DNA of 64,000 nt from Candidatus Liptonbacteria bacterium (GCA_023244895.1 JAHFLL010000001.1:83630-147629), one strand, 5' to 3'. Shown: positions 4,452-55,101, counted from the first letter of the stretch. The notes: a model not told the origin generated them from the sequence alone. Made by a program: numbers and translations.

Positions 4452-4889
4452 TTGGGATTAAATAATATGGCAAAAGAAATCAAAACAGTATTAAAAATTC
4501 AGTTAAACGCGGGCAAAGCTAATCCGGCTCCTCCGGTTGGCACCGCACTCGGTCCGCATGGCGTGAATATCGCCGACTTTTGCAAGCAATTCAACGATGC
4601 TACCAAGGACATGATAGGGGATGTGGTCCCGGCGGAAATCACGATTTATGCCGACCGCAGTTTCACCTTCAAGCTCAAGACCCCGCCCGTTTCCGCGCTC
4701 CTAAAGCAGATGGCCAAAGTTGATAAGGGCGCGGCCAATCCCTTAAAGGCCAAGGTTGGTAAAGTTTCTAAGGCTCAGGTTAAGGAGATTGCGGAGAGAA
4801 AGATGATTGATCTCAATACGGAGGACATAGAAGCGGCCATGAGAATAGTGGAGGGGACCGCTAGAAGTATGGGAATTACCGTGGAGTAG
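4452..4889 (+). CDS. rplK: 50S ribosomal protein L11
   Basis: [35 protein letters not shown] is the L11 signature. Confidence 0.95.
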
Positions 4890-6472: not shown

Positions 6473-7915
6473 ATGAAATACCAACCCACAATCGGATTAG
6501 AAATCCACTGCATCTTGCGAACACAGACCAAGATGTTTTGCGACTGCCCCAACGAGCCGGAGGAAAAGGAGCCCAACCGCAACACCTGCCCAGTTTGTCT
6601 GGGCCATCCCGGTACCTTGCCTACTATAAATCGCAAAGCGGTAGAGTCCGTTATCCGGGTGGGTCTGGCGCTTCAGGGTAAGATAAATCCGATTTGTAAG
6701 TTTGACCGTAAGAATTATTTTTATCCCGATTTGCCGAAGGGTTATCAAATTTCCCAATACGATCAGCCGCTAGTTCTGGGCGGCGAGCTGAATGGTATCC
6801 GCTTGCGCAGAATACATTTAGAAGAAGATGCGGCCAGGCTGCTGCATGAGATCTCCGGCCAAACCAAAAAGGGCGAGGCGAGTTTTGTGGATTTTAACCG
6901 CGCGAGCGTGCCCTTGATGGAGCTTGTGACTGAACCGGATTTAAGGAGCGCGGAAGAGACGGTAGAATTCGCGCGTGAGCTCCAAAGGATTTTGCGATAT
7001 TTGAAAGTATCGGACGCGGACATGGAGAAGGGGCATTTGCGCATTGAGGCAAATGTTAGTTTGAATATGGGTCCTAAGGTTGAGCTTAAAAATATTAACT
7101 CCTTTAAGGCGGTCGGTTCCGCGATTGCGTATGAACTGAAGAGGCAGGAGGAAGTTCTGGAGGGTGGAGGAACGGTCGCGCATGAGACACGCGGTTGGGA
7201 CGAAGTGAACCAGAAGAGCGTAAGTCAGCGTAGCAAGGAAGAAGCACAAGACTACCGTTATTTCCCGGAGCCGGATTTACCGCCATTTGAGACGGAGATT
7301 TTCAGCCCGGAAGAACTTCGTGGAGCCTTGCCGGAGTTGCCAGCCATGAAGCGTACCCGTTTCGCAAAAGAGTTCGGTTTGAGTCCCGACCAGGTCGCGC
7401 TCTTGGTGGACGACTTGGAACTATCGGAATATTTTGAAGAATGTTTAAGCGAGCTTGCCACGCGGGATGAATCAGCCTCGTCTACGGTTGAAAAGAGCAG
7501 TACCGTTTTACTCTTTAATTATTTAACTAGCGACCTGGCTGGCCTCTTGGCGGAAGGGGGCATAACTATCCGCAAATCCAAAGTCAAACCGGAACACCTG
7601 GCTCACTTAGTGGATTTAATCGTGGATGGAAAAATAATGAGCCGCCAAGCTAAAGATATTTTGAAGAAAGTTTTTGAAACCGGCACTGACCCGGAAGACG
7701 TTATGAAAGACGAGGGACTGGAGACCGTTTCGGATAACTCCGAGCTGGAAAAAGCGATTAAAGAAGTTATATATGAAAACCCGAAAGCGGTGGAAGATTT
7801 GCGCGCGGGCAAGGAGGCAAGCATGCAGTTCTTGATAGGAAAGTGTATGGGTAAGCTTCGCGGGCGGGGCAATCCGGCGACCATAAAAGAAGTTATAAGC
7901 AAAATTATTAAATAA
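6473..7915 (+). CDS. gatB: Asp/Glu-tRNA amidotransferase subunit B
   Basis: N-terminal GLEIHCIL...KMFCDCPN and a GatB/YqeY C-terminal domain. Confidence 0.9.
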   Translation: MKYQPTIGLEIHCILRTQTKMFCDCPNEPEEKEPNRNTCPVCLGHPGTLPTINRKAVESVIRVGLALQGKINPICKFDRKNYFYPDLPKGYQISQYDQPLVLGGELNGIRLRRIHLEEDAARLLHEISGQTKKGEASFVDFNRASVPLMELVTEPDLRSAEETVEFARELQRILRYLKVSDADMEKGHLRIEANVSLNMGPKVELKNINSFKAVGSAIAYELKRQEEVLEGGGTVAHETRGWDEVNQKSVSQRSKEEAQDYRYFPEPDLPPFETEIFSPEELRGALPELPAMKRTRFAKEFGLSPDQVALLVDDLELSEYFEECLSELATRDESASSTVEKSSTVLLFNYLTSDLAGLLAEGGITIRKSKVKPEHLAHLVDLIVDGKIMSRQAKDILKKVFETGTDPEDVMKDEGLETVSDNSELEKAIKEVIYENPKAVEDLRAGKEASMQFLIGKCMGKLRGRGNPATIKEVISKIIK

Positions 7916-9159
7916 TGAGCCCAGAAACTCCACCCCTCCCAGACGATCCGCCCAAGGACGCCTCTATCCCCAGGCGAACCTCTAGGGAAAATCCGAAACA
8001 AGAAGAAATCGGGTTGGAACATCTAGCGGTGGGTCCAGGTCAAGAAGATTCTGCCAGGCAGTTGGAAGTTATTTCCGGTTTTCGTTTTCGGGATGAGCGA
8101 GACAGGCAACAATTCACGTCTTTTATGGAGTCGCTGGCTCAGGCCCTAGAGACGTATTTATCGCACAACAATGCGGAGCCGTTGGCCGGGATAGACGACA
8201 CTATTTTGCGCGCAGTTTTGCTGGCAGAACCAAACGAACCGGCTCAAAGGCAGAAAATTTCGATTGAAGAAGCATTCGTAAGAATCCAAAAAAATATTAC
8301 CGAATATCTAATAAGTCATCCCCGTCAGATTCAAATCAGTTCTGGAGTTATCTCAGACCAATTAATTCTGCGGATTAAGGGCATGGAATCTATGGTCAAT
8401 TTTTTACATTTGCGCTCCGCCGAGCCTCTACCCGAAGATTGTCGCCGTACTTTTTACACCCAAACCAGGCTGGATGCCAGATTCAGCGTTGACGTAATAG
8501 AAGTGATTGAGCAAAACCAAGGTGGTCAATTAGAGATTCCGGAACTGAATCTTATTCAGGTCAAATCATCCGAACCCACAGATAGGGGCGTGAGCGATAT
8601 CCAGAAGGACCATGACATAGTTTGGCGAGAACTTTGGGGAGATGTGGAAAACGCTAATCAGGCAGTCGCGGAGGCATTCAGGTTAAGTCCAGACCAACTG
8701 GGCAAAAGGGTGGAGGGGCTACTTTGGATCTGCGCCGAGCTTCAGGCCGGGGGCAGTCCCAAAAATTTCCTTGACTCATTGACCGCTGAAATAATAAATT
8801 CGGCCGAACAGTATGGTGTAAACCCAGACTATCTAAGGCAGGCTAGCCCAGCCTTGCGCGCCAAAAGAATCACTCCCATATTGAGGATGTTTTTGAAATC
8901 CTTGGGGGAGAGATTTGATAAAGCATTTGTAGTATTAGATCAGATGTCCAAGAAACCAGAGGGCGTTCCCCCGCAGCAACCGTTTTTTGTGCGCAATCCG
9001 GCAGTAGCAAGAATTAAGGATGTGAATTCTTTGGTTGTTGTTGGAGAGCGGAGCGGTTCGTATCACATAGCGGCGAAGGAAGTCATTACTTCTGGCCAGT
9101 CCGGTAAGGCGTTAGTTTTGCGGTCGCGTCGGATTGACCCGGGAAATAAAAAGAGGTAA
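7915..9159 (+). CDS. hypothetical soluble protein (414 aa), translationally coupled to gatB
   Basis: start overlaps the gatB stop (TAATG); backbone-like GC; no TM segment and no motif I can assign. Confidence 0.5.
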   Translation: MSPETPPLPDDPPKDASIPRRTSRENPKQEEIGLEHLAVGPGQEDSARQLEVISGFRFRDERDRQQFTSFMESLAQALETYLSHNNAEPLAGIDDTILRAVLLAEPNEPAQRQKISIEEAFVRIQKNITEYLISHPRQIQISSGVISDQLILRIKGMESMVNFLHLRSAEPLPEDCRRTFYTQTRLDARFSVDVIEVIEQNQGGQLEIPELNLIQVKSSEPTDRGVSDIQKDHDIVWRELWGDVENANQAVAEAFRLSPDQLGKRVEGLLWICAELQAGGSPKNFLDSLTAEIINSAEQYGVNPDYLRQASPALRAKRITPILRMFLKSLGERFDKAFVVLDQMSKKPEGVPPQQPFFVRNPAVARIKDVNSLVVVGERSGSYHIAAKEVITSGQSGKALVLRSRRIDPGNKKR

Positions 9160-9171
9160 AAAATAGAAAGC

Positions 9172-9453
9172 ATGAGCAAGGAGCATGCACCCATGGGGAA
9201 CAACCCGATCGACGTCTTGCTGCGTGAGCACGGCCTCGAACCGTTGCCTGGCGCTGGCAGAGAGGGGCTGTACGTGGCTCCGTTTGACGAGCACGCGTGG
9301 GAAGTCGCCACGGCGACATTCAAGAACGCCATCGGTAATGCGTCGGATCAGGCGGCCATCGCCGAGCTGATGGAACAGGCGATTCGGCTGTACGTGGAGC
9401 TCGTCGGACAGAACACGCGAGCGCCCGCCGAGGAGCCAAGACGATGCGCGTAG
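9172..9453 (+). CDS. hypothetical high-GC protein (93 aa)
   Basis: first ORF of a high-GC island; followed by a strong hairpin terminator; start codon uncertain. Confidence 0.35.
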   Translation: MSKEHAPMGNNPIDVLLREHGLEPLPGAGREGLYVAPFDEHAWEVATATFKNAIGNASDQAAIAELMEQAIRLYVELVGQNTRAPAEEPRRCA

Positions 9454-9461
9454 GCGCGTAA

Positions 9462-9503
9462 GTGGCCGCACCCTCCCGGGATGCGGCCACGATATTTAAT
9501 AAT
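9462..9503 (+). terminator. intrinsic terminator GTGGCCGCA(11-nt loop)TGCGGCCAC plus T-rich tail
   Basis: perfect 9-bp GC stem followed by GATATTTAATAAT. Confidence 0.55.
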
Positions 9504-9525
9504 CAATTAGGTTGGTATAGATTTT

Positions 9526-9566
9526 ATGCAAAAAGTTACCCCCGGCGCACAGCGTGGCGCCAGGGG
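9526..9566 (-). terminator. intrinsic terminator for the PhoH-like gene (minus-strand CCCCTGGCGCC...GGCGCCGGGGG then TTTTTG)
   Basis: GC hairpin followed on the minus strand by TAACTTTTTGCAT. Confidence 0.6.
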
Positions 9567-9601
9567 TAGGGGACTTATGGACTCTCTCGTAGCGAGGACG
9601 G

Positions 9602-11062
9602 CTAGAGCAGTTTCGCCGCCAGCTCCGCGATCTTGGAGCGAACGACATCGTGCATCGCTAGGTGAGCGAAACAGGGCTGGCCCTTGAATCGTTCCACGAC
9701 CTGCACTAGCCCGTTTGAGAGCGAGTTGATCTCGCTACGGTCAATCTGGTCGGGGTCGCCCGTGAGGATCACGCGCGAGCCCTCGCCCGCCCGCGTGAGC
9801 ACGAGCTTCATGTCCTCTTGAGTGAGGTTCTGCCCGTCGTCCACAATGATGACGGCTTCGTGGATGGAGCGACCGCGCAGATAGTTAATCGGCGCGATAT
9901 CAAGGGCGTGCGTTTGGAGCAGACTCTCGACAGTCGGATGTGTCGATACCGCTTCTCCTCTGGTCGGTTGATGTTCGCCGACCGAGTTGGTGAAGCGTGT
10001 CGGACCATGCAGTCGGCGCATGATGAAGTCGAGGTTGTCGATGATGGGCCTGGCCCAAGGGGCCATCTTGTCTCCCAGATCTCCCGGGAGAAAGCCCAGT
10101 TCACGGCCCGCCTCGGCGTTGAGGCGGTAGACTTCGATACGCGAAACCTTGTGGCTCCGGAGCATCTTGTAGGCCGACAGGAGCGCAATGAGCGTCTTCC
10201 CCGTGCCGGCGATGCCGCTCAGGCTGGTGATTAGGGTATGATCGTCCATGATCAGGTCGTGCGCACAGAACTGTTCTGCGTTACACGGTCCGAAGCGTTC
10301 TTCCAGCTTGGTGTTGACGCGACGCAAGTAGCCTGGGGTTTCGTGACTCTTGTAGATTCCCCACGCACTCTTGCCCGTGCCGGCGACACAGATCTCACAG
10401 CACTGGTTGGCCATGATCTTACTCACATCTGTGTAGTCGGCCAGGGCACTCACCGGGAGCCGTTGCTCGTGGTGCAGAGTGTTCAGCAACGCTGCCTCGC
10501 CCTCTGGCACCTCAATGCGCAGGCGTCCCGAATAGAATTTCTCGGGAGCCTCCACGGCCCGGTCGCTCCGATAGTCTTCGGCCACGACGCCACGCGCGCG
10601 AGCCTTCATCCGCATCGCGGCATCGCGGGTGACGAGGATGACCCGTTCGTCCGGATGCGCGACCTGGTAGTTGTCAGCCAACATGATAATCGCATCATCG
10701 GCGTAGTCTCGGTTGAATCCGGGCCACGCGCGAGACAGGTCCAGCCTGCCCGCGTCGAATCGCAGCAGTCCTCCGTTCAGAGGGATTCCGTGCTGTAGTT
10801 CGTCGAGAGAGGCCCGCGTCTGAATGTCGTCCAAGAACCTGACCACGTTGCGGGCAGTGTACCCGACACCGTTTGCGGCAGCACGCCGCCGATCAAGTTC
10901 TTGGAGTACGGGGAACGGTATGACAACGACGTTCCCGTTGACCAGGGATTGCACGATTTCGGGCACGGCCACCAGCACGCTGGTGTCCGTAACGTAGGTC
11001 TTCTTCCCTACGTTTCCCGCTTCGCCGCTTAGCATGGATTGCTCCTTCGGGTTTGCCAACAC
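9602..11062 (-). CDS. PIN domain / PhoH-like ATPase fusion (YlaK-like)
   Basis: N-terminal PIN-like region (YVTDTSVLV...VVIPFPVLQELD) and C-terminal PhoH P-loop (LSGIAGTGKTLIAL); strong SD GAAGGAGCAATCC-ATG; GC3-rich codons unlike the backbone. Confidence 0.8.
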   Translation of the reverse strand: MLANPKEQSMLSGEAGNVGKKTYVTDTSVLVAVPEIVQSLVNGNVVVIPFPVLQELDRRRAAANGVGYTARNVVRFLDDIQTRASLDELQHGIPLNGGLLRFDAGRLDLSRAWPGFNRDYADDAIIMLADNYQVAHPDERVILVTRDAAMRMKARARGVVAEDYRSDRAVEAPEKFYSGRLRIEVPEGEAALLNTLHHEQRLPVSALADYTDVSKIMANQCCEICVAGTGKSAWGIYKSHETPGYLRRVNTKLEERFGPCNAEQFCAHDLIMDDHTLITSLSGIAGTGKTLIALLSAYKMLRSHKVSRIEVYRLNAEAGRELGFLPGDLGDKMAPWARPIIDNLDFIMRRLHGPTRFTNSVGEHQPTRGEAVSTHPTVESLLQTHALDIAPINYLRGRSIHEAVIIVDDGQNLTQEDMKLVLTRAGEGSRVILTGDPDQIDRSEINSLSNGLVQVVERFKGQPCFAHLAMHDVVRSKIAELAAKLL

Positions 11063-12189: not shown

Positions 12190-12218
12190 TTGACTAATTA
12201 TACAAAATGTGATAAAAT
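12190..12218 (+). promoter_or_regulatory. near-consensus sigma70 promoter TTGACT-17-TGaTAAAAT (extended -10)
   Basis: seen directly; the -35 abuts the miaA start codon on the opposite strand. Confidence 0.5.
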
Positions 12219-12288
12219 ACGCAATAGCGTCGGTGAGCTGGGGCATAGGGCTCCGGCAATAGTCCGAGGCGGTATATCGGAGTGCGTC

Positions 12289-12684
12289 ATGACTGATGCT
12301 ATCGTGTTTGTGATCACGGCGTTCATGGTCGGCGGAGAGGTCTTCATGGCGGCATGGGGGATTTTCTCCTGGACATGCGTTGTGGCGTGGCTCGCTGTGA
12401 TGCTCTATCTCACCTGGGACATCTGGGGCGCCCGGGTCGTAGAGCTCCAGCGGGATCTCGTGGCCGAGTTGGAGGAAGGCACGCCGCCCGACTTCAGCTC
12501 GCAACGAGTACTCCCGCCAAGTAGGTGGGACATCGTCCATTTCGCTGGCGTGGACGAGCAGGGGCAGGCGAAGTTCGACTACCCCCTCCTTTCCGCGTTT
12601 GCCGCCTGGCTCCGCCACCACATTGTGATTGGCGGTGGTCGCTGGCGGTACGGCGACACGTTCCCGCCGGACGGCAGCCGGTAG
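12289..12684 (+). CDS. small membrane protein (about 131 aa, 2 predicted TM segments), high GC
   Basis: GGAG 8 nt upstream of the ATG; hydrophobic N-terminus (VFVITAFMVGG...WLAVMLYLTW); GC3-rich. Confidence 0.4.
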   Translation: MTDAIVFVITAFMVGGEVFMAAWGIFSWTCVVAWLAVMLYLTWDIWGARVVELQRDLVAELEEGTPPDFSSQRVLPPSRWDIVHFAGVDEQGQAKFDYPLLSAFAAWLRHHIVIGGGRWRYGDTFPPDGSR

Positions 12685-12746
12685 CCCCACTGAGACGGGG
12701 CAATAGTGACTGGGGTCCAACGTGGACCCCTTTCGCATTTTTATAT

Positions 12747-12775
12747 TTGACTAAAGTGGAAAGCGGGCATAGTTT
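12747..12775 (+). promoter_or_regulatory. candidate promoter TTGACTAAAGTGG...(-10 weak, TAGTTT)
   Basis: shares the TTGACTAA -35 box with the promoters at 12190 and 13853, and AAAGTGG with the one at 34703. Confidence 0.3.
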
Positions 12776-12798
12776 TTAAATCAGGAAAGGAGACGGCG

Positions 12799-12906
12799 AT
12801 GTTTCAAGCAGGCAACTCCTCGGACCCATGGGTCGTATTCGCGTTTGTGGTAATGGCGATTTTGGCCTGGGTTGTTCGCCGAATTGATCGGCGGAAAGGA
12901 GGATAG
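12799..12906 (+). CDS. 35-aa single-TM peptide (MFQAGNSSDPWVVFAFVVMAILAWVVRRIDRRKGG)
   Basis: AGGAAAGGAGAC SD 5 nt upstream; codons checked by hand. Confidence 0.4.
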   Translation: MFQAGNSSDPWVVFAFVVMAILAWVVRRIDRRKGG

Positions 12907-12907
12907 A

Positions 12908-13099
12908 ATGCAGCCGCCCACAGAGTTCAGGTTGGAAAACGTTCTGGCGGCTACGGGCCTCTTCGTTGCCTGGCTGGTCGGCAATCTCATAGCCGACTGT
13001 CGGGCGAGACGGAGAAGGACGAATGTGCCGAAACGTGGAAGCGGGCACGCTCCGCACGAACACTGCGAACACGAATGCGAGGAAAAGCGTGAAAGCTAG
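12908..13099 (+). CDS. 63-aa membrane peptide with His/Cys/Glu-rich tail (HAPHEHCEHECEE)
   Basis: AGGAGG SD; start lies 1 nt after the previous stop; a TM helix followed by a possible metal-binding tail. Confidence 0.4.
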   Translation: MQPPTEFRLENVLAATGLFVAWLVGNLIADCRARRRRTNVPKRGSGHAPHEHCEHECEEKRES

Positions 13100-13102
13100 G
13101 GG

Positions 13103-13145
13103 GCGAGTCGGAGAGCCGACTCGCCCTTACACATTTAATAATTTG
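13103..13145 (+). terminator. intrinsic terminator GGCGAGTCGG agag CCGACTCGCC plus T-rich tail
   Basis: perfect 10-bp stem 4 nt after the stop. Confidence 0.6.
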
Positions 13146-13170
13146 ACAAAGATTCGGAATAGTATTTGGA
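13144..13170 (+). promoter_or_regulatory. candidate promoter with TTGACA -35 inside the motif ATTTGACAAAGA (also present at 16636)
   Basis: -10 is ambiguous (TAGTAT or TATTTG with a short spacer). Confidence 0.3.
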
Positions 13171-13246
13171 TAGGGATAGCTTACTGCTCCGACGCTTTCG
13201 TGGGCCTTGGGGCAAATCTAGTGGGCGGAAGGGAGGGATCTCCGTG

Positions 13247-13378
13247 ATGTTGGCAGTCGCACTCTCGAGCGTCCCGATGTGGGCATGGCCAGTCATCGCC
13301 ATCGTGGCCGTCGTGGCTGCCGCTGTGGTTGCGCGGTTTTTCAGCGGCAGGAACTCGTCCACGAACCACGTCGCGTGA
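13247..13378 (+). CDS. 43-aa hydrophobic peptide (MLAVALSSVPMWAWPVIAIVAVVAAAVVARFF...)
   Basis: GGGAGGG SD; GTG-ATG start; one TM segment. Confidence 0.4.
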   Translation: MLAVALSSVPMWAWPVIAIVAVVAAAVVARFFSGRNSSTNHVA

Positions 13379-13387
13379 CACAGCAAG

Positions 13388-13440
13388 GGGGGCCGGAGGA
13401 AGCGTGCGTATGCACGCTCGCCAATGGCCCCCCGATCAAT
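13388..13440 (+). terminator. nested GC hairpins (GGGGGGCC...GGCCCCCC enclosing GCGTGC gtat GCACGC)
   Basis: lies downstream of the 43-aa ORF; followed by an AT-rich stretch. Confidence 0.4.
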
Positions 13441-13527
13441 TTCAATAATCGGATTGACGGATAGTCTTTTTTATACTTTCATATAGCGAGCGCACAATCA
13501 TCGCCACCTCGCCTCAAGGAGGTCGGA

Positions 13528-13815
13528 ATGGGTTTGATCTTGGTATATGCGATCGCACTGTATGCGATCATCGCCTTCGTGCACGGAGCACAAGGTGGAA
13601 ATCGGGAAGATGTGAACGAAGAATCCGCACGTCCGCCGCTCTGGTGGATAGCGATCCACACTCTCGGAAGCTGGCTGGCTCTCCAGCCAAAGCTCTTCCC
13701 GGAGCGTTGGTGCGAATTCGTGTGTCGGTTCAAGATGTTGCGCGGGTCTCTGTGTCGGCGAATGACGGAGGTCGTCCGTCGTGGCTGGCACCTGATTGGT
13801 GCGAACATAGAATGA
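13528..13815 (+). CDS. 95-aa membrane protein with Cys-rich C-terminus (WCEFVCRF...SLCRR)
   Basis: AAGGAGG SD 6 nt upstream; two hydrophobic segments. Confidence 0.45.
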   Translation: MGLILVYAIALYAIIAFVHGAQGGNREDVNEESARPPLWWIAIHTLGSWLALQPKLFPERWCEFVCRFKMLRGSLCRRMTEVVRRGWHLIGANIE

Positions 13816-13852
13816 AGGGGCTTCCGGCACGCGTCGGCGGTCCCTTTCTGTT

Positions 13853-13881
13853 TTGACTAATCAGCCATTTTGTTTTTATAT
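13853..13881 (+). promoter_or_regulatory. sigma70-like promoter TTGACT-17-TTATAT
   Basis: TTTTGACTAA -35 context shared with 12190 and 12747. Confidence 0.45.
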
Positions 13882-13896
13882 ATAGTCAGCACGTAT

Positions 13897-13917
13897 CTTC
13901 CGGTGTGCTACGCACCG
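13897..13917 (+). promoter_or_regulatory. 5'-UTR hairpin TCCGGTG tgctacg CACCGGA
   Basis: perfect 7-bp inverted repeat between the promoter and the SD of the 178-aa ORF. Confidence 0.35.
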
Positions 13918-13939
13918 GAGTTGCCGTTTTGGAGGACAC

Positions 13940-14476
13940 ATGACCGGCGAAGTTCTAGTAGCAGTTCTGCTGGGCGTAATCATGGGGGTCGCAATTCTGG
14001 GCTCAATGGACCGTGCCACCTGGCGGCGAGTCTGGGACGAGATCTTCGCCGACGCCTGGTGCGTCCAGGCCACGAAGAACACCTACGAGTCCGTTGTGGG
14101 TGCGATTCTGTGGCTCGGGGTCATGGTGGCGGGTCTCGCTATTCAAGCGGCGGGGTCGGTGCGGGCATGGTGGCGAGAGAAAGTATTTGTGCCACCGCGC
14201 GTTGCCATCAAAACGTTCGCGGACGCGACGGGTCGCGAAGGCGAGAACACTATGGTGTTCATCTCCGAGGTGGGCATCCTGGTCTGGCGGCTGTTGCTTT
14301 GGCTCGCGATAGCAGCTGTCGCGAGCGTTTTCCGCCAGCTCCTCGCTGAGCGGGCAGAGACAAAACGGGTTTTCGCCACATTTGCCGACTCCATAGAGGC
14401 GGACGACCACTTCTGTGCGACGACCCTAACCAATCGGCAGGATGCCGCTTGCGAAGCCGTGAGGTCAGTCAAGTAG
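13940..14476 (+). CDS. 178-aa polytopic membrane protein (about 4 predicted TM segments)
   Basis: GGAGG SD; alternating hydrophobic helices; high GC. Confidence 0.5.
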   Translation: MTGEVLVAVLLGVIMGVAILGSMDRATWRRVWDEIFADAWCVQATKNTYESVVGAILWLGVMVAGLAIQAAGSVRAWWREKVFVPPRVAIKTFADATGREGENTMVFISEVGILVWRLLLWLAIAAVASVFRQLLAERAETKRVFATFADSIEADDHFCATTLTNRQDAACEAVRSVK

Positions 14477-14484
14477 ACCAGTCT

Positions 14485-14520
14485 GGGGCTCCGCGTATGT
14501 CGGAGCCCCTTACGCTTTTC
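14485..14520 (+). terminator. intrinsic terminator GGGGCTCCG cgtatgt CGGAGCCCC plus T-rich tail
   Basis: perfect 9-bp stem ending the high-GC island. Confidence 0.6.
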
Positions 14521-14627: not shown

Positions 14628-16433
14628 TCACAAAGACTTCTCCTTGTATTCTTTCTCTATTTCCTCTGCCAATTTTTCTATTTTCATTTCTCCTACCTGT
14701 CCCTTCTTGTAATGCCTGATGCTTACCGTGTTCGTACCTTCTTCTTTTTCGCCAACAACTAAAACGTAGGGTATCTTTTCCATATCCGCGGTGCGGATTC
14801 TCTTGCCCAGAGTCTCGTTCGCGTCGCGCAATTCCACCCGGATATTTTTTTCGCGCATGGCCTCCGCCACTTTTTCGGCATACGCCGCGAACTTTTCTCC
14901 GACTGGCAGAATTGCGACTTGCACCGGCGCGAGCCAGAGAGGGAATGCGCCCGCGTAGCGCTCTATCAGGAATGCCATGGTGCGCTCAAAGCAGCCGATA
15001 GAGGAGCGGTGAATCACGATAGGCTGTTGTTCTTTGCCCTGCTCGTCGGTATAAACCAATTCAAAACGTTTTGGCATTACGAAGTCATACTGCACTGTAA
15101 AGGCGGTCTCTTCCTGGCCGCTGACCTTCTTCATCTGCACGTCAATCTTAGGACCATAGAACGCCGCCTCACCTTCCGCTTCAAAGAAGGGCGCTTTCAT
15201 TTCTTTGAGCACGCTACGCAAAACACCCTCCGCTTTTTCCCAGGCCTTGTCGTCCTTGTAGTATTTCTTGGAATCCTTGCGGTCGCCGAGCGATAGACGG
15301 TAGCGATAATCAACTCCCTTCTCCAAACCAAATACTTTATTAGCGTAATCTATCAGATCTAAAACCCGTTTTATTTCATCCTTAGCCTTTTCTGCGGGAA
15401 CGACAATATGCGCGTCCGCCAAGCAGAACATTCTTACCCTCATTAAGCCGGTCAGCTCACCGCTTTTTTCGTAGCGGAATTGGCTGGCTATCTCCGCGAT
15501 GCGCATAGGTAATTCGCGGTAACTACGCGGCTTGCTCTTATAAAGCATAAAGTGGTGTGGACAGGTCATGGGACGCAGTATTAATTGGTCGTTGTCCACC
15601 TGCATGACCGGATACATTGTATTTTTATAATAGGGGTAGTGTCCGGACTTCTGATAGAGTTCCACTTTCGCGAGCGGGGGAGTGATAACGTGCTGATAAC
15701 CCCACTTGGTTTCGGTTTCGTACACGAATTTTTCCAGCTCTTTTCTGATGACGGTGCCCTTGGGGGTGAGGAGCGGCAAGCCCTTGCCGACTATGTCGGA
15801 AAAAACAAACAGATCTAAATCCGCGCCCAGTTTGCGATGGTCTCGCTTCCTGGCTTCTTCCAGTCGCGCTACGCATTCCTCCAGCTCTTTCTTGCTGTTA
15901 AATGCCAAGCCGTAGATACGGGTCAGCATTTTTTTCTTTTCGTCGCCTCGCCAGTAAGCGCCGGCAATCTTCTCCAGCTTAAAACCGTGCGGGTCTATCT
16001 CGGCCGGGGGCAGGTCGTGTCCGCCTTTGCACAAATCTATAAATCCTCCGCAAGTGAAAAAAGTTAGAGTTTTTTTCTCGCGCGCGAATTCTTCCGCGAG
16101 CTCAATCTTATATTTATTCCAACCAAACTCTTTTTTGACCTCGCGCAGGGTTACGATTTTTTTAGTCCACTTGGTCCAACGGGGAAGCAGTTCCCGCATT
16201 TTAGCCTCAATCTTGGGTAGGTCCGCATCGGAAATAGTTTTTGACATCTCAAAGTCCTGGTAGAAGCCGTTTTCTACGGCTGGTCCGATCGCGTTCATAG
16301 AGCCGGGGTAGAGCTCGCGCACGGCGGCGGCCAAAAGGTGCGCCAAGGAATGGCGCACGCCTTCCAGTTGCAGTTCGCTGGAACTCTCCCTTGCCGGCTT
16401 GCTTGCTGATTTCTTTACGGATTGTTTTTTCAT
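14628..16433 (-). CDS. thrS: threonyl-tRNA synthetase
   Basis: class II core with an anticodon-binding domain; N-terminal editing/TGS region reduced; TGA stop. Confidence 0.9.
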   Translation of the reverse strand: MKKQSVKKSASKPARESSSELQLEGVRHSLAHLLAAAVRELYPGSMNAIGPAVENGFYQDFEMSKTISDADLPKIEAKMRELLPRWTKWTKKIVTLREVKKEFGWNKYKIELAEEFAREKKTLTFFTCGGFIDLCKGGHDLPPAEIDPHGFKLEKIAGAYWRGDEKKKMLTRIYGLAFNSKKELEECVARLEEARKRDHRKLGADLDLFVFSDIVGKGLPLLTPKGTVIRKELEKFVYETETKWGYQHVITPPLAKVELYQKSGHYPYYKNTMYPVMQVDNDQLILRPMTCPHHFMLYKSKPRSYRELPMRIAEIASQFRYEKSGELTGLMRVRMFCLADAHIVVPAEKAKDEIKRVLDLIDYANKVFGLEKGVDYRYRLSLGDRKDSKKYYKDDKAWEKAEGVLRSVLKEMKAPFFEAEGEAAFYGPKIDVQMKKVSGQEETAFTVQYDFVMPKRFELVYTDEQGKEQQPIVIHRSSIGCFERTMAFLIERYAGAFPLWLAPVQVAILPVGEKFAAYAEKVAEAMREKNIRVELRDANETLGKRIRTADMEKIPYVLVVGEKEEGTNTVSIRHYKKGQVGEMKIEKLAEEIEKEYKEKSL

Positions 16434-16635
16434 ATTTGTAGTTTAGATTGTTTTATTATGCCCTATAAGCGCCCAAACAAAAAGTCCTCCGCAGGAGGCT
16501 TCTCGTGGCATCGATTCACTTCTCCACAAAAAGCCCGCCTAGGGAGGCGTAGTAGTTGCGGTAGTAGTTTTGCGAATTTCGACCGTCATAACCCCAATTT
16601 ACCGCCTCGGGGCTACCTGTCAATCTATTTCTGGG

Positions 16636-16670
16636 GATTTGACAAAGAGCACTTTAATATGTTTATTATA
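16636..16670 (+). promoter_or_regulatory. candidate promoter containing ATTTGACAAAGA (identical 12-mer to 13142-13153)
   Basis: TTGACA -35 followed by an AT-rich -10 region (TATTATAGT). Confidence 0.35.
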
Positions 16671-16689
16671 GTGTCAGGAGGACGCGAGC

Positions 16690-16911
16690 ATGCAACACAA
16701 GTCGTCATGTGAGATTCTGGGCCACCACGCCGATCCCAAGCTCGGAGAGGCTTGGAGGAGGGCGTCAAGCTTGAGCCAAGAGGCGATACTTCTCGCCCAA
16801 GCACAGGACGAAGCTGGACTGGCGGAGAACCTTGAGGCTCAGGACGCAAACCGAGCCGAGGTAAACCGCCTCGAGGCCGAGGGTTGCACCTGTGGCGCAG
16901 CCAACCGCTAG
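16690..16911 (+). CDS. 73-aa hydrophilic high-GC protein
   Basis: AGGAGG SD; followed by a GC hairpin and T-run. Confidence 0.4.
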   Translation: MQHKSSCEILGHHADPKLGEAWRRASSLSQEAILLAQAQDEAGLAENLEAQDANRAEVNRLEAEGCTCGAANR

Positions 16912-16930
16912 GGCGGGAAGCAGGAAAAGG

Positions 16931-16963
16931 GGCGCACGCGTCGTGCGCCTCGAACTTTTATAA
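16931..16963 (+). terminator. intrinsic terminator GGCGCACG cgt CGTGCGCC then TCGAACTTTTATAA
   Basis: perfect 8-bp stem followed by a T-run. Confidence 0.55.
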
Positions 16964-17024
16964 GAGGACTCCGAATCCCCAAAAACGTCTTCACGTGGCG
17001 GGGATAGTGAGTTATGATAGTTCC

Positions 17025-18302
17025 ATGCTTGACGTAGAGCTTTTGCGCAACGAATCCGAACGGGTTAAAAGCCTGATAAAGACCAAAAACGCCGACCCCA
17101 AAATGGTGGACGAGTTTTTGAGGTTGGACACGGAATGGCGCAACCTAACCAAAGAAGCGGATGATCTGCGCGCCTTACAGAACCAGCTTTCTAAAGAACG
17201 TAAAATTGAAGAAGCTAAGGCTAATAAGGAAAAAATAAAAGCGACCGAAGAGAAGATTGCCGCGCTGGAGAACGAGCGCGCGGTAGTATGGAAAAAAATA
17301 CCCAACCTGCCCAGCGAAGACTCGCCCATTGGAAAGGATGACTCCTCAAACGGAGTGGTAAGGGTAACGGGCCAGCCCAGAGAGTTTGATTTTGAACCCA
17401 AGGACCACCTTACTCTAGGGGAGAGGTTGGGAGTAATAGATATAGACACCGCTGCCAAGGTAACGGGCACGCGTTTCGGATATATTAAGGGTGACTTGGC
17501 TATTTTGGAATTAGCTTTAGTGCAATATGCGACCGAGATACTGCATAATCCCGCCATAGTGCGCTCCATCGCGGAGAGCGCGAAAGCCGGTTATAACTCC
17601 AAGCCATTTCTATCTGTTATCCCACCGGTAATGATTCGGCCGGAAGTGATGGATAGAATGGCGCGCTTGGAGCCAAAGGAGGAACGTTACTATATCCCGA
17701 GCGACGACCTTTATTTGGTTGGTAGCGCCGAGCATACCTTGGGACCAATGCACATGGATCAGGTCATTCCCGAGAGCGAATTTCCCCTGCGCTACCTAGG
17801 ATTTTCTACCGCCTTTCGGCGGGAGGCCGGTAGCTATGGCAAAGATACTCGCGGCATTTTGCGCGTGCATCAATTTGATAAGTTAGAAATGGAGTCATTT
17901 ACTTTGCCGGAAGATGGAATGAATGAGCAGAATTTCTTTATAGCGATTCAGGAGTACTTGATGTGGTCGTTGGAGCTGCCACATCGCATAGTTATCTGCT
18001 CCACCGGCGACCAGGGCGATCCGGACACGCGTCATTTAGACCTAGAGACCTGGTTGCCTAGCGAGAAAAAATATCGCGAGACCCACTCTGCGGATTATAT
18101 GGGCGATTATCAGGCCCGGCGCCTGGGCACGAAGGTTAAGCGTGCGGATGGTCGGACGGAATTCGTGCACATGAACGACGCTACAGTTTTCGCAATTGGG
18201 CGGACGCTTATCGCTATCATGGAGAACTATCAGACCAAGGAGGGCAAAATAATGATTCCTAAAATTTTGCAGCGCTATGTCGGCAAGGAAATCATTGGTT
18301 AA
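17025..18302 (+). CDS. serS: seryl-tRNA synthetase (start MLDVELL at 17025; the 16884 extension is spurious)
   Basis: N-terminal coiled-coil arm and class II motifs (FRREAGSYGKDTRGI). Confidence 0.9.
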   Translation: MLDVELLRNESERVKSLIKTKNADPKMVDEFLRLDTEWRNLTKEADDLRALQNQLSKERKIEEAKANKEKIKATEEKIAALENERAVVWKKIPNLPSEDSPIGKDDSSNGVVRVTGQPREFDFEPKDHLTLGERLGVIDIDTAAKVTGTRFGYIKGDLAILELALVQYATEILHNPAIVRSIAESAKAGYNSKPFLSVIPPVMIRPEVMDRMARLEPKEERYYIPSDDLYLVGSAEHTLGPMHMDQVIPESEFPLRYLGFSTAFRREAGSYGKDTRGILRVHQFDKLEMESFTLPEDGMNEQNFFIAIQEYLMWSLELPHRIVICSTGDQGDPDTRHLDLETWLPSEKKYRETHSADYMGDYQARRLGTKVKRADGRTEFVHMNDATVFAIGRTLIAIMENYQTKEGKIMIPKILQRYVGKEIIG

Positions 18303-26549: not shown

Positions 26550-26831
26550 GTGGACGCTTTGAGTTATGTCTTGGTCGTCGTACTCGCTGGAGTGGTCATC
26601 TGGCTTGCGAATCGTCTGAGGGTACTGAAGAAGGAAAACGCGCAACTGAGCGCGAGTCTCGCGACGGCGCAGGCTGCTCTGCCGCCCGAAGGAACGGAGC
26701 AGTCTCTGCAGGGCATCACGTTTGACCTGCTGTGGGTTTGCCGAACATGCGGCTGGTTCGGTAGAAACAACGTGCTTTACAAGCACGTTCGGCGCGCGCA
26801 CGGAGTAGCAGGTCCACCCGAAGCTGCGTGA
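26550..26831 (+). CDS. 93-aa high-GC protein: TM anchor, coiled coil, C2H2-like zinc-finger tail (CRTCGWFGRNNVLYKHVRRAH)
   Basis: GGGGGAGG SD 5 nt upstream of a GTG start; the track ORF begins at an upstream TTG. Confidence 0.4.
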   Translation: MDALSYVLVVVLAGVVIWLANRLRVLKKENAQLSASLATAQAALPPEGTEQSLQGITFDLLWVCRTCGWFGRNNVLYKHVRRAHGVAGPPEAA

Positions 26832-28746: not shown

Positions 28747-28780
28747 TGCAGTTCGGGTCCGAGGCTGGCTTGTCGCTAGC

Positions 28781-29125
28781 CTAGGACATGATGGCGTGAA
28801 GCAGGGCGAGGCAGGGCCCGCCCACGCTTCCGAGGAAGAAGCCGATCGCGATGACTATCGCGTAGACCTCCAGCGCGGAAGTGCGTGGCTTGCGCCGCTT
28901 GAGCTTCCCGGCCAGATTGGCGAGGAGGCAGAGCAATGGCATCACCAAGATCCAGGTCAATGCGCGCCCCGTGGCCTGGTCTTGCGGACTGGCGCTTGGC
29001 CAGCCTGAGGACATGAGCCACCAGCCGCCCCAGATCGCCGCCAGCAGGGCGAGGATCGTCGTGAGGACGACGGCCCACTCCCATTTGCCGCAATCGATTC
29101 CGTTCGCCGCCGTGACGCTTGTCAT
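28781..29125 (-). CDS. 114-aa high-GC membrane protein (Trp-rich, about 3 predicted TM segments)
   Basis: GGAGGAG SD 4 nt upstream of the ATG; upstream TTGCCA-16-TATTTT promoter. Confidence 0.5.
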   Translation of the reverse strand: MTSVTAANGIDCGKWEWAVVLTTILALLAAIWGGWWLMSSGWPSASPQDQATGRALTWILVMPLLCLLANLAGKLKRRKPRTSALEVYAIVIAIGFFLGSVGGPCLALLHAIMS

Positions 29126-54285: not shown

Positions 54286-55101
54286 ATGCATCCAGGAGAA
54301 CACGGCGTGGAGAACAAAGACAGCAAACGCAGGATGACCCAGGAAGAGGCAGAACTTTTCGCGCGGGACGCGCGATACACGACTCCGGAATCGTTCCGTT
54401 ACAGCTGTTGCGTGGATGGACGGGAAGAAGGCGCAGATGCTTCGCGGGCAGTGCCTGGCGCAGACGCGGGCTACTTCATGTCTGCTCTTGCCGCTCTCCG
54501 GGAATCCGGAGTAGAGGTCACCCCTGAGGTGCGTCGCGCGGTTTTCGGTGCAGTGATTGACTCGGTCGGCGGCCCAAAGAACATCCGTTTCCACACCGAC
54601 CTTCACGCCTTGGAAAAGGCGAAGGAAAAGGGAGTTGTTGCGGGAGTGGCTGCTGGCTGTGGTCATCTCAATTTGGCTCGGCAGAACCCCGGAGTTTACG
54701 GCGTCACCGCGGAAGATATGTCCGCGATCGACGAGGAGCTCCTAAGGCTGCTCGGCGAGGACGCTGATCAGAAGACCCTCCCCGGCAATCACGGCGAGGA
54801 AGCAGTGATGGTGGTGGACGATGTTTCTGTCGGGTTACGCCACCAGGCCGCCGGCAGTCAGGCCTTCGTGTACCACAAGGGTTCGAGCGATGCCTTTTTA
54901 GACCAGCTGGCGGGAGCGGTCTTGGCGAAGCTACCGAACCATCAGCCCGGTCTCACCGAAGAAGCTCTGCGCGTTAAACTGGGAGCATCTTTCGATAGGC
55001 AGCTTACCGCCACGGTGAATAGCCTGGCGCCCGGCCTGCCTCAGTACCGGGTGAGCGGGGAAGAGGTTTCCTACTTGGGCGACGTTCCCAAGAAAGAGTA
55101 G
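54286..55101 (+). CDS. high-GC hypothetical soluble protein (271 aa; start may be the GTG at about 54304 after an AGGAGA SD)
   Basis: about 60% GC; Cys motifs CCVDGRE and AAGCGH; no confident family. Confidence 0.45.
   Translation: MHPGEHGVENKDSKRRMTQEEAELFARDARYTTPESFRYSCCVDGREEGADASRAVPGADAGYFMSALAALRESGVEVTPEVRRAVFGAVIDSVGGPKNIRFHTDLHALEKAKEKGVVAGVAAGCGHLNLARQNPGVYGVTAEDMSAIDEELLRLLGEDADQKTLPGNHGEEAVMVVDDVSVGLRHQAAGSQAFVYHKGSSDAFLDQLAGAVLAKLPNHQPGLTEEALRVKLGASFDRQLTATVNSLAPGLPQYRVSGEEVSYLGDVPKKE

Follow-up and report, generated by a model that had tools for sequence, protein, structure and literature searches.

Among the described systems closest to the locus reported here, one is the leader-peptide attenuator, exemplified in Escherichia coli by thrL of the thrABC operon and by pheM of the pheST synthetase operon (reviewed in PMC2965389); the threonyl-tRNA synthetase gene, thrS, is itself controlled by translational autoregulation in E. 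coli and by T-boxes in Bacillus. Another is the phage moron, an autonomous promoter-gene-terminator unit lying between phage genes, familiar from the HK97 and lambda literature. The present analysis concerns the 591-bp spacer (positions 16434-17024) between the divergent thrS and seryl-tRNA synthetase (serS) genes in a 64,000-nucleotide stretch of Candidatus Liptonbacteria bacterium DNA (GCA_023244895.1, JAHFLL010000001.1:83630-147629), a Patescibacteria, Liptonbacteria-like contig that is called 'the window' below. In the explanation that is considered likely, this spacer holds three independent features: a minus-strand attenuator that controls thrS, a plus-strand insertion of 334 bp that carries an ordinary accessory gene, and the serS promoter. 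With the attenuator, a well-known class gains a further member and is extended to another phylum.

Leader peptides ahead of synthetase genes have been reported in Proteobacteria, Firmicutes and Actinobacteria, including a weak thrS case in Streptomyces (PMC2965389, PMC8079986). In Streptomyces lividans TK24 a thrL leader was proposed upstream of thrS, the peptide of which contains only two Thr residues and is followed by no clear intrinsic terminator (PMC8079986). No report of thrS leader-peptide attenuators in Candidate Phyla Radiation (CPR) bacteria, the Patescibacteria, was found in the searchable literature.

A short open reading frame (ORF) lies 106 nt upstream of thrS and on the same strand (Table 1). 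It runs from ATG to TAG and includes the codons ACT ACT ACC GCA ACT ACT ACG. An earlier note on this DNA had placed a tandem GTAGTAGTT just upstream of a plus-strand gene cassette. The tandem is real (16549-16557 and 16561-16569), but it belongs to an element on the opposite strand, where it supplies the Thr codons of the thrS leader. The leader promoter includes CTGTCAAT, which is invariant in five relatives. A terminator scan detected two terminator-like hairpins 3' of the leader ORF, and folding predicted in addition a long alternative hairpin, with a 5' arm that takes in the stop codon and the leader codons just before it. This hairpin ends at the U-run, and the corresponding RNA of one relative, L002, folds alike. 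Its inner helix, GGGCUUUUUGUGG/CCACGAGAAGCCU, is the predicted antiterminator.

This arrangement suggests a classical mode of control. A sigma-70-type promoter would start a transcript whose first 16 codons are MTVEIRKTTTATTTPP, and which is probably leaderless because the ATG lies 6 nt past the -10 box. If charged Thr-tRNA were scarce, the ribosome would stall at the Thr codons and the GGGCUUUUUGUGG/CCACGAGAAGCCU helix would form, occupying part of the terminator stem; with that stem disrupted, RNA polymerase would read into thrS. With the ribosome at the stop codon, the antiterminator helix would be masked, the CCUCC-UGC-GGAGG hairpin with its U-run would form, and transcription would end.

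The same kind of leader recurs in other genomes. For the spacer as a whole, a relative is informative only if its thrS and serS form a divergent pair, and four such relatives were obtained: L162, L163, L164 and L002 (serS identity 97%, 82%, 75% and 72%, respectively). All four possess Thr-run leaders, three of which read MKTIFCATTTTTTTNPP, MVEVRNTTTTTTTNPP and MARVRTATTTTTTTNPP, and the L163 leader begins MRAIRETTATTTT. When a leader was defined as an ATG-started ORF of 6-40 residues with at least four Thr in five residues, within 500 nt upstream of thrS, such leaders were found at 9 of 80 Patescibacteria thrS loci, at none of the 80 on the antisense strand, and in 13 of 4144 other windows (0.3%). 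Runs of any other amino acid occurred at no more than two of the 80 thrS loci each, and the enrichment is therefore specific to Thr and to the sense strand. The further loci with an attenuator are L006, L019, L021, L029, L030, L044, L062, L070 and L076, and a hairpin of the CCUCC-N3-4-GGAGG type with a U-run lies 21-40 nt past the leader stop in 9 of the 11 loci examined besides the window. Alignment showed that the Thr-codon run pairs with a downstream GUGG/GUAG segment and that the terminator has undergone compensatory changes.

The predicted switch was then followed in silico in 11 elements by modelling the ribosome as a mask over the mRNA during folding. With the ribosome at the stop codon, the terminator was complete in all 11. 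With the ribosome on the Thr codons, the terminator was lost at most or all stall positions in 10 of the 11; in the L070 element it was lost only at the first of five. The element thus combines the features by which leader-peptide attenuators are recognised, namely an ORF of cognate codons, an intrinsic terminator and, as judged from these folds, an alternative structure that depends on ribosome position. Together, the modelling and the recurrence of the leader make it likely that a threonine leader-peptide attenuator controls thrS, presumably in response to Thr-tRNA charging.

Comparison with known leaders supports placing the element in this class. Like thrL and pheM of E. coli, it has a short ORF with a run of cognate codons able to pair with a downstream segment, and its antiterminator and terminator hairpins, ahead of a U-run, exclude each other; it shares with pheM a position before an aminoacyl-tRNA synthetase gene. 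Unlike either of them, it would control thrS, it occurs in Patescibacteria, it is apparently leaderless, and it has no sequence or covariance-model similarity to Rfam leaders. Indeed, no Rfam model (including Thr_leader, other leaders and T-box) matched anywhere in the window at gathering thresholds, none matched 16380-17080 with an E value of up to 10, and no RNA family or tRNA was found in the spacer. The element resembles S. lividans thrL in being a small leaderless ORF upstream of thrS that is read as a threonine-dependent attenuator, but it differs from it in having 6-7 Thr codons and a canonical terminator, and the two share no sequence relationship.

The second feature of the spacer is an insertion. 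A five-way alignment, confirmed pairwise, places the unit at an identical point in the window, L162 and L163, and shows uninterrupted sites in L164 and L002, which read CTGGGGAAT joined directly to ACCCCAAAA. The 334 bp contain exactly a TTGACA promoter, a Shine-Dalgarno (SD) sequence, an ORF and a terminator, and the difference between presence and absence is clean. In the empty sites the flanks join as a small palindrome between two divergent -35 boxes; the insertion would accordingly sit in the loop of this palindrome (GGGGAAT/ACCCC). Since the filled sites are those of the three genomes closest by serS, one gain in a common ancestor is the most economical history, and the unit would have been acquired once in the ancestor of the three sampled lineages and then retained. 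No second copy or paralogue of the unit was found in the window or in 160 related Patescibacteria loci.

The palindrome itself deserves a separate remark. In genomes without the insertion, a near-perfect palindrome, TGGGGAATACCCCA, is centred between the thrS-leader and serS -35 boxes (L164, ~640-655; L002, ~7655-7675, minus strand). This might be an operator, the two halves of which stand 334 bp apart in the window. In L162 (6530-6600), around an N10 assembly gap, the segment TGTCAA…CTGGGGAT, from the thrS-leader -35 region, is apparently duplicated.

Table 1. Positions of features in the thrS-serS spacer, with the flanking genes and the corresponding attenuators of relatives. Promoters, terminators and hairpins are predictions.
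Feature	Position	Strand	Basis
Attenuator element, window	16476-16623	-	
Attenuator element, L002	7712-7830		
Attenuator element, L162	6390-6512	-	
Attenuator element, L164	505-607	-	
thrS-leader promoter: TTGACA, 16 nt, TAAATT	16596-16623	-	promoter scan, 10/12 match
Leader ORF: MTVEIRKTTTATTTPP and stop, 6 Thr among 7 consecutive codons	16539-16589	-	translation; complement is GTAGTAGTT twice
Attenuator terminator: CCUCC-UGC-GGAGG (16498-16486), then ACUUUUUGUUU	16476-16498	-	terminator scan; masking folds
Alternative long hairpin: 5' arm 16547-16524, 3' arm 16508-16486	16486-16547	-	minimum free energy -46.5 kcal/mol, z = -2.2
Left palindrome arm: TTTCTGGGGATT	16628-16639	.	inverted repeat, 92% complementary to 16974-16985; seen in empty sites of L164 and L002
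Insertion of 334 bp, one transcription unit with promoter, SD, ORF and terminator	16640-16973	+	five-way alignment, also pairwise
Small-gene promoter: -35 TTGACA 16639-16644; putative -10 TTTATT 16662-16667 (17-nt spacer) or TATTAT 16664-16669 (19-nt spacer)	16639-16669	+	sequence reading
Shine-Dalgarno sequence AGGAGG	16676-16681	+	8 nt 5' of ATG
73-residue ORF (ORF73): acidic, N-terminal HxSxC, C-terminal CxC	16690-16911	+	ORF call, alignment with ORF79 and ORF80
Intrinsic terminator: GGGGCGCACG-CGT-CGTGCGCCTC, then GAACTTTTAT	16929-16961	+	terminator scan, 10 pairs, 8 of them GC
Right palindrome arm: AATCCCCAAAAA	16974-16985	.	inverted repeat; five-way alignment
serS promoter: TTCACG, 17 nt, TATGAT	16990-17018	+	promoter scan; kept in L002, L162, L163 and L164
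thrS (threonyl-tRNA synthetase; controlled by leader)	14628-16433	-	601-residue ORF; Pfam tRNA-synt_2b and HGTP_anticodon
serS (seryl-tRNA synthetase)	17025-18302	+	ORF and gene call

The sequence features that the earlier note had listed for this region all exist, within 1 nt of where it had put them: the 73-residue ORF with its AGGAGG, GGATTTGACAAAGAGC upstream of it (16635-16650), and the hairpin GGCGCACG-cgt-CGTGCGCC (16931-16949), followed by CTTTTAT. Its description of a self-contained single-gene unit of high GC content also holds, given the clean 334-bp polymorphism among relatives and a GC content of 62% in ORF73, compared with 49% in the window. The -35 TTGACA of the small gene is kept in L162 and L163, and the SD position is occupied by GGGGGG in L162 and by GAGGAGG in L163.

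The ORF has orthologues of similar length in the two relatives that carry the unit (ORF79 in L162 and ORF80 in L163, named like ORF73 for their residue numbers). Start, SD and frame are kept, and frame and stop position persist despite indels of 6-7 codons. Each of the three proteins has exactly three Cys residues, at matching places: one in an N-terminal H-x-S-x-C and two in a C-terminal C-x-C. GC contents at first, second and third codon positions of ORF73 are 0.70, 0.48 and 0.67 (GC1, GC2 and GC3), and this GC1>GC2<GC3 pattern, in the frame of the ORF, is typical of coding sequence. Overall identity among the three proteins is only 40% and 25%. Against L162, the nonsynonymous divergence (dN) of ORF73 is 0.74, compared with 0.018 for serS and 0.042 for thrS; with synonymous divergence (dS) of ~1.0-1.4, dN/dS is ~0.53 for ORF73 and 0.02-0.04 for serS and thrS. 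The change is unevenly spread: the middle 49 codons are no more alike than shuffled DNA, the final nine codons are 86% identical, and the next 113 nt are 97% identical. These data suggest that ORF73 is probably a real gene, if a weakly constrained one.

The product would be a small, acidic (12 D/E, 7 K/R), mostly single-helix cytoplasmic protein in which only the ends are constrained and the middle drifts almost neutrally. AlphaFold2, run with no alignment, gave a single long helix over residues 16-64 at a predicted local distance difference test score of 74. The His and Cys residues at the two ends may form one metal (Zn) site that clamps the ends together, and a small protein-binding adaptor or regulator is the best guess for the role of the protein. 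No evidence gives it a functional link to thrS, to serS or to the group of small genes described below. The exact 73-residue product is present on five assembled contigs, including ENA ERZ27279977 k141_80858 and an NCBI contig, and its exact-sequence cluster has a size of 1. A word-indexed search of 5.8 billion proteins returned no relatives beyond ORF73 itself and the syntenic ORFs, a full phmmer search of 1.84 billion representatives added none, and a profile built from the three members matched only those three. Pfam, PHROGs, PADLOC and NCBIfam gave nothing significant for ORF73, its two homologues or the small island ORFs considered below, and a PDB-sequence profile search for ORF73 turned up nothing beyond weak matches to designed helical bundles, which reflect composition. 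ORF73 is therefore best filed as a lineage-restricted orphan small-protein gene. Its possible action as a Ser-codon attenuator for serS was also considered and rejected: the three homologues have no Ser run, and serS has a conserved promoter of its own past the terminator.

Several observations weigh against the explanation as set out so far. In the attenuator, the window U-run is preceded by a stem of just 5 bp, and the automated terminator call failed in L162 and L002, which have CUUUC tails. The direction of the insertion event, gain rather than loss, uses serS identity as a proxy for the tree and involves two empty-site genomes, and the left insertion junction of L162 coincides with the N10 assembly gap. 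For the small gene, the -10 box is either weak or open to two assignments, with a spacer of 17 or 19 nt, and none is obvious in L163. As for the protein, constraint on ORF73 is weak; by our own estimate ~12% of random 73-codon frames stay open at 62% GC, so that the persisting frame is supportive, not conclusive; and phmmer linked none of the three family members (n=3) to each other, which leaves homology in the middle part unproven.

The last of these points invite the reading that ORF73 is not a functional protein at all, and that the unit acts as an RNA, either a small RNA or an insulator between the thrS and serS promoters, or is a decaying remnant left open by chance. The pattern of conservation fits such a reading, in that the middle codons have diverged like shuffled sequence while conservation is seen in the -35 box and at both the 5' and the 3' end, and is greatest in the terminator region, and the unit transcript folds somewhat better than shuffles (z = -2.6). 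However, the start, SD, frame, stop position and three Cys residues kept in three genomes through the indels, the coding-type GC at codon positions and a dN/dS below 1 all argue for translation, and no Rfam family matched the unit. An RNA or remnant is on balance quite improbable.

The high GC content raises the question of origin. A unit that is cleanly inserted with its own promoter and terminator, that has a GC content so far above that of the window, and that has other high-GC segments nearby, among them a PIN-PhoH gene of 60% GC, could be a moron-like cassette captured recently, either from a phage or from a donor or host organism rich in GC, with its composition as the signature of the donor. 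The unit is not recent: the unit is common to lineages with dS >1 and serS identity down to 82%. Nor has the GC excess eroded, for it is maintained or increased in the L162 homologue (GC3 0.85). The protein searches disclosed no donor homologue, and no relatives of ORF73 were found in phage genomes (blastn), plasmids (tblastn) or IMG/VR viral contigs; the neighbours are housekeeping genes, not a prophage. Recent foreign capture is thus regarded as unlikely, and retention after a single older gain is preferred.

Likeness to morons is nonetheless real in architecture: one gene with its own promoter and intrinsic terminator, deviant in base composition, stands between two unrelated genes. Unlike morons, the ORF73 unit lies between chromosomal housekeeping genes and has been vertically inherited for a long time, and membership of the phage moron class was rejected because the flanks are thrS and serS rather than phage genes and no PHROG, phage or viral-contig match exists. 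Three other classes were also rejected. An integron cassette, a promoterless ORF with an attC recombination site that lies beside an intI integrase and attI, is contradicted by the TTGACA promoter that the unit has of its own and by its 3' hairpin, a perfect GC stem of 8-10 bp with a T-run, i.e. a terminator; no integrase was found among the gene calls within 10 kb on either side, the whole genome not having been searched for one. A miniature inverted-repeat transposable element or other non-autonomous transposon is contradicted by the lack of a second copy in the window and 160 related loci, and since the inverted-repeat arms are present in empty sites they belong to the target and not to the element; a possible AAT duplication was seen in this comparison.

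The third rejected class is that of small zinc-binding proteins with the SEC-C motif, CxC-x8-C-(C/H) (PF02810). A more distant relative, L086, has in its thrS/serS spacer a different high-GC ORF of 64 residues with its own terminator (4638-4832, plus strand), which carries two SEC-C motifs (Pfam PF02810 at 23.6 bits, with a cutoff of 20.4). The ORF73 unit resembles this gene in the type of spacer that it occupies, in the small size and high GC content of its Cys-bearing ORF, and in having a terminator to itself. In addition, the last four residues of ORF73 and ORF79, C-T-C-G, are those with which the SEC-C core CxCGSGK begins. Unlike SEC-C proteins, the ORF73 family has no second Cys/His pair in the C-terminus; ORF73, ORF79 and ORF80 have no Pfam match; and no DNA similarity was found between the L086 ORF and the ORF73 unit. 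Small genes with Cys residues thus seem to have landed in the thrS/serS spacer repeatedly.

The earlier note had further proposed that the promoter of the small gene links it to a group of small genes at 12190-14520. This 'island' of 2.3 kb, on the plus strand between miaA and thrS, consists of five consecutive units, each with a TTGAC promoter, a strong SD, a small, high-GC and mostly transmembrane ORF and a GC-rich hairpin. Its unit order is conserved in L002 and L162; its promoters and terminators are 79-91% identical where aligned with L162, but the coding bodies of units c1 and c3 are unalignable, as is c5 in its C-terminal portion. The proposal, that a specific shared promoter core (ATTTGACAAAGA or TTTGACTAA) reflects co-regulation or a common source, has several facts in its favour. 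The exact 12-mer ATTTGACAAAGA occurs twice only in the window, at 13141 in the island and at 16637, both times at a promoter; TTTGACTAA occurs three times, always at island promoters, a number reached in just 2 of 100 shuffles; TTGACWAA occurs six times, always intergenic and on the plus strand, with five of the six copies at small-ORF units; and the ORF73 and island units are alike in architecture.

Closer analysis nevertheless places the 12-mer match at chance level. With one mismatch allowed, two or more matches arose in 9 of 100 shuffles, and exact matches of 12-13 nt to the 366-nt cassette number four in the rest of the window, at BLAST E values of 8-32; the promoter 12-mer is one of these four. 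No similarity extends past the 12 bases around the two copies. The 12-mer is the -35 hexamer TTGACA in an AT-rich context, and in this genome TTGAC[AT] serves generally as the -35 box, with 31 copies in the window, 12 of them in the 14% of the sequence that is non-coding. The sixth TTGACWAA belongs to the TTGACA-18-TATAAT promoter of the infA-rpsM-rpsK-rpsD operon (42215), which is likewise headed by TTGACAAA. Across the 160 related Patescibacteria loci and the window, promoter-like sites have AA behind TTGACW more often than any other dinucleotide (24%, vs 11.6% of all TTGACW). An extended -35 box TTGACWAA specific to the cassettes (5 of 6 units vs 1 of 7 other intergenic TTGAC[AT] sites) was therefore rejected, as the infA-rpsM promoter shares it and the preference is phylum-wide.

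The relatives bear on the same point. The L162 island promoter P3 retains the 12-mer within an identical block of 33 nt, whereas the promoter of the orthologous ORF reads AGTTGACAAGCT in L162 and CAGTTGACATAT in L163, so that the identity is neither ancestral nor selected at the ORF promoter. L002 has the island, in the same unit order, but not the ORF73 unit, and the two therefore have separate histories; tblastn revealed no similarity between the ORF73 and island proteins. In the window the 12-mer was not scattered inside backbone genes, the pattern that the earlier note had named as refuting its proposal, but this does not rescue the link. We conclude that the 12-mer marks ordinary sigma-70-type promoters, with no evidence of shared origin or special co-regulation, and a specific promoter link between unit and island is very improbable.

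A wider grouping of small genes can also be envisaged. Isolated ORFs of 58-61% GC lie between backbone genes at 26551-26830 (+), 28760-29125 (-) and 54286-55101 (+); all three have a terminator-like hairpin, an AT-rich region lies upstream of each, and the first two encode a transmembrane segment. Across lineages with dS above 1, such small units hold a GC content well above that of the genome. One class of Patescibacteria chromosomal modules might take in the ORF73 unit, all five units of the island and at least these three others, each with a promoter, strong SD, small ORF and terminator, lodged at palindromes or spacers between housekeeping genes, kept 10-15 points above the genome in GC over long evolutionary times, and having flanks that are kept while the coding bodies turn over neutrally or nearly so, or are replaced. 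That they constitute a single class is, at present, an improbable proposition.

The remainder of the neighbourhood can be described briefly. Beyond thrS lie miaA and the island, and other neighbours are alr and lepA; the thrS protein is 79% identical to that of a Candidatus Liptonbacteria metagenome-assembled genome, the nearest GTDB genome by thrS. Between gatB and miaA, 7915-11062 is a compositionally foreign segment that holds the PIN-PhoH (PhoH2-type) gene (9602-11062, minus strand); the 414-residue and 93-residue ORFs beside it have no family match.

The third feature of the spacer, the serS promoter, has a counterpart in the thrS leader: both (serS, 17013-17027; thrS leader, 16596-16589, minus strand) leave just 6 nt between -10 box and ATG and lack an SD, and the short interval makes it probable that the serS mRNA, too, is leaderless. 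The same spacing is seen in L002, L164, L021 and L062, and as far as sequence can tell it suggests leaderless mRNAs at serS and at the thrS leader. The small accessory ORFs, unlike these two, have strong SDs. The segment that holds the terminator and the serS promoter (16912-17024) is 97% identical to L162 6906-7018, compared with 85-86% for thrS and serS coding DNA, which points to strong constraint or recent local recombination. In L002 (7865-7955, minus strand), L162 (6268-6350) and L164 (361-450), some 90 additional nt that repeat ACGAAT/CGAATG motifs separate the attenuator terminator from the start codon of thrS; the window and L163 lack them.

By itself the ORF73 unit is one more lineage-restricted small CPR gene and matters little. 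If the module class were real, it would be a chromosomal counterpart of phage morons and a source of small proteins, often located in the membrane, that evolve fast and perhaps act in interactions with a host or with phages; conserved flanks around unalignable coding bodies, together with a lasting GC excess, are a concrete and testable oddity of accessory-gene evolution in Patescibacteria. Overall the finding is ordinary, and the attenuator on the opposite strand is of modest interest. Threonine leader-peptide attenuators probably precede thrS in about a tenth of the sampled Patescibacteria, which would mean that reduced CPR genomes use classical ribosome-coupled sensing of tRNA charging, and small Thr-run ORFs upstream of thrS would serve as an annotation signature of regulators rather than of hypothetical proteins.

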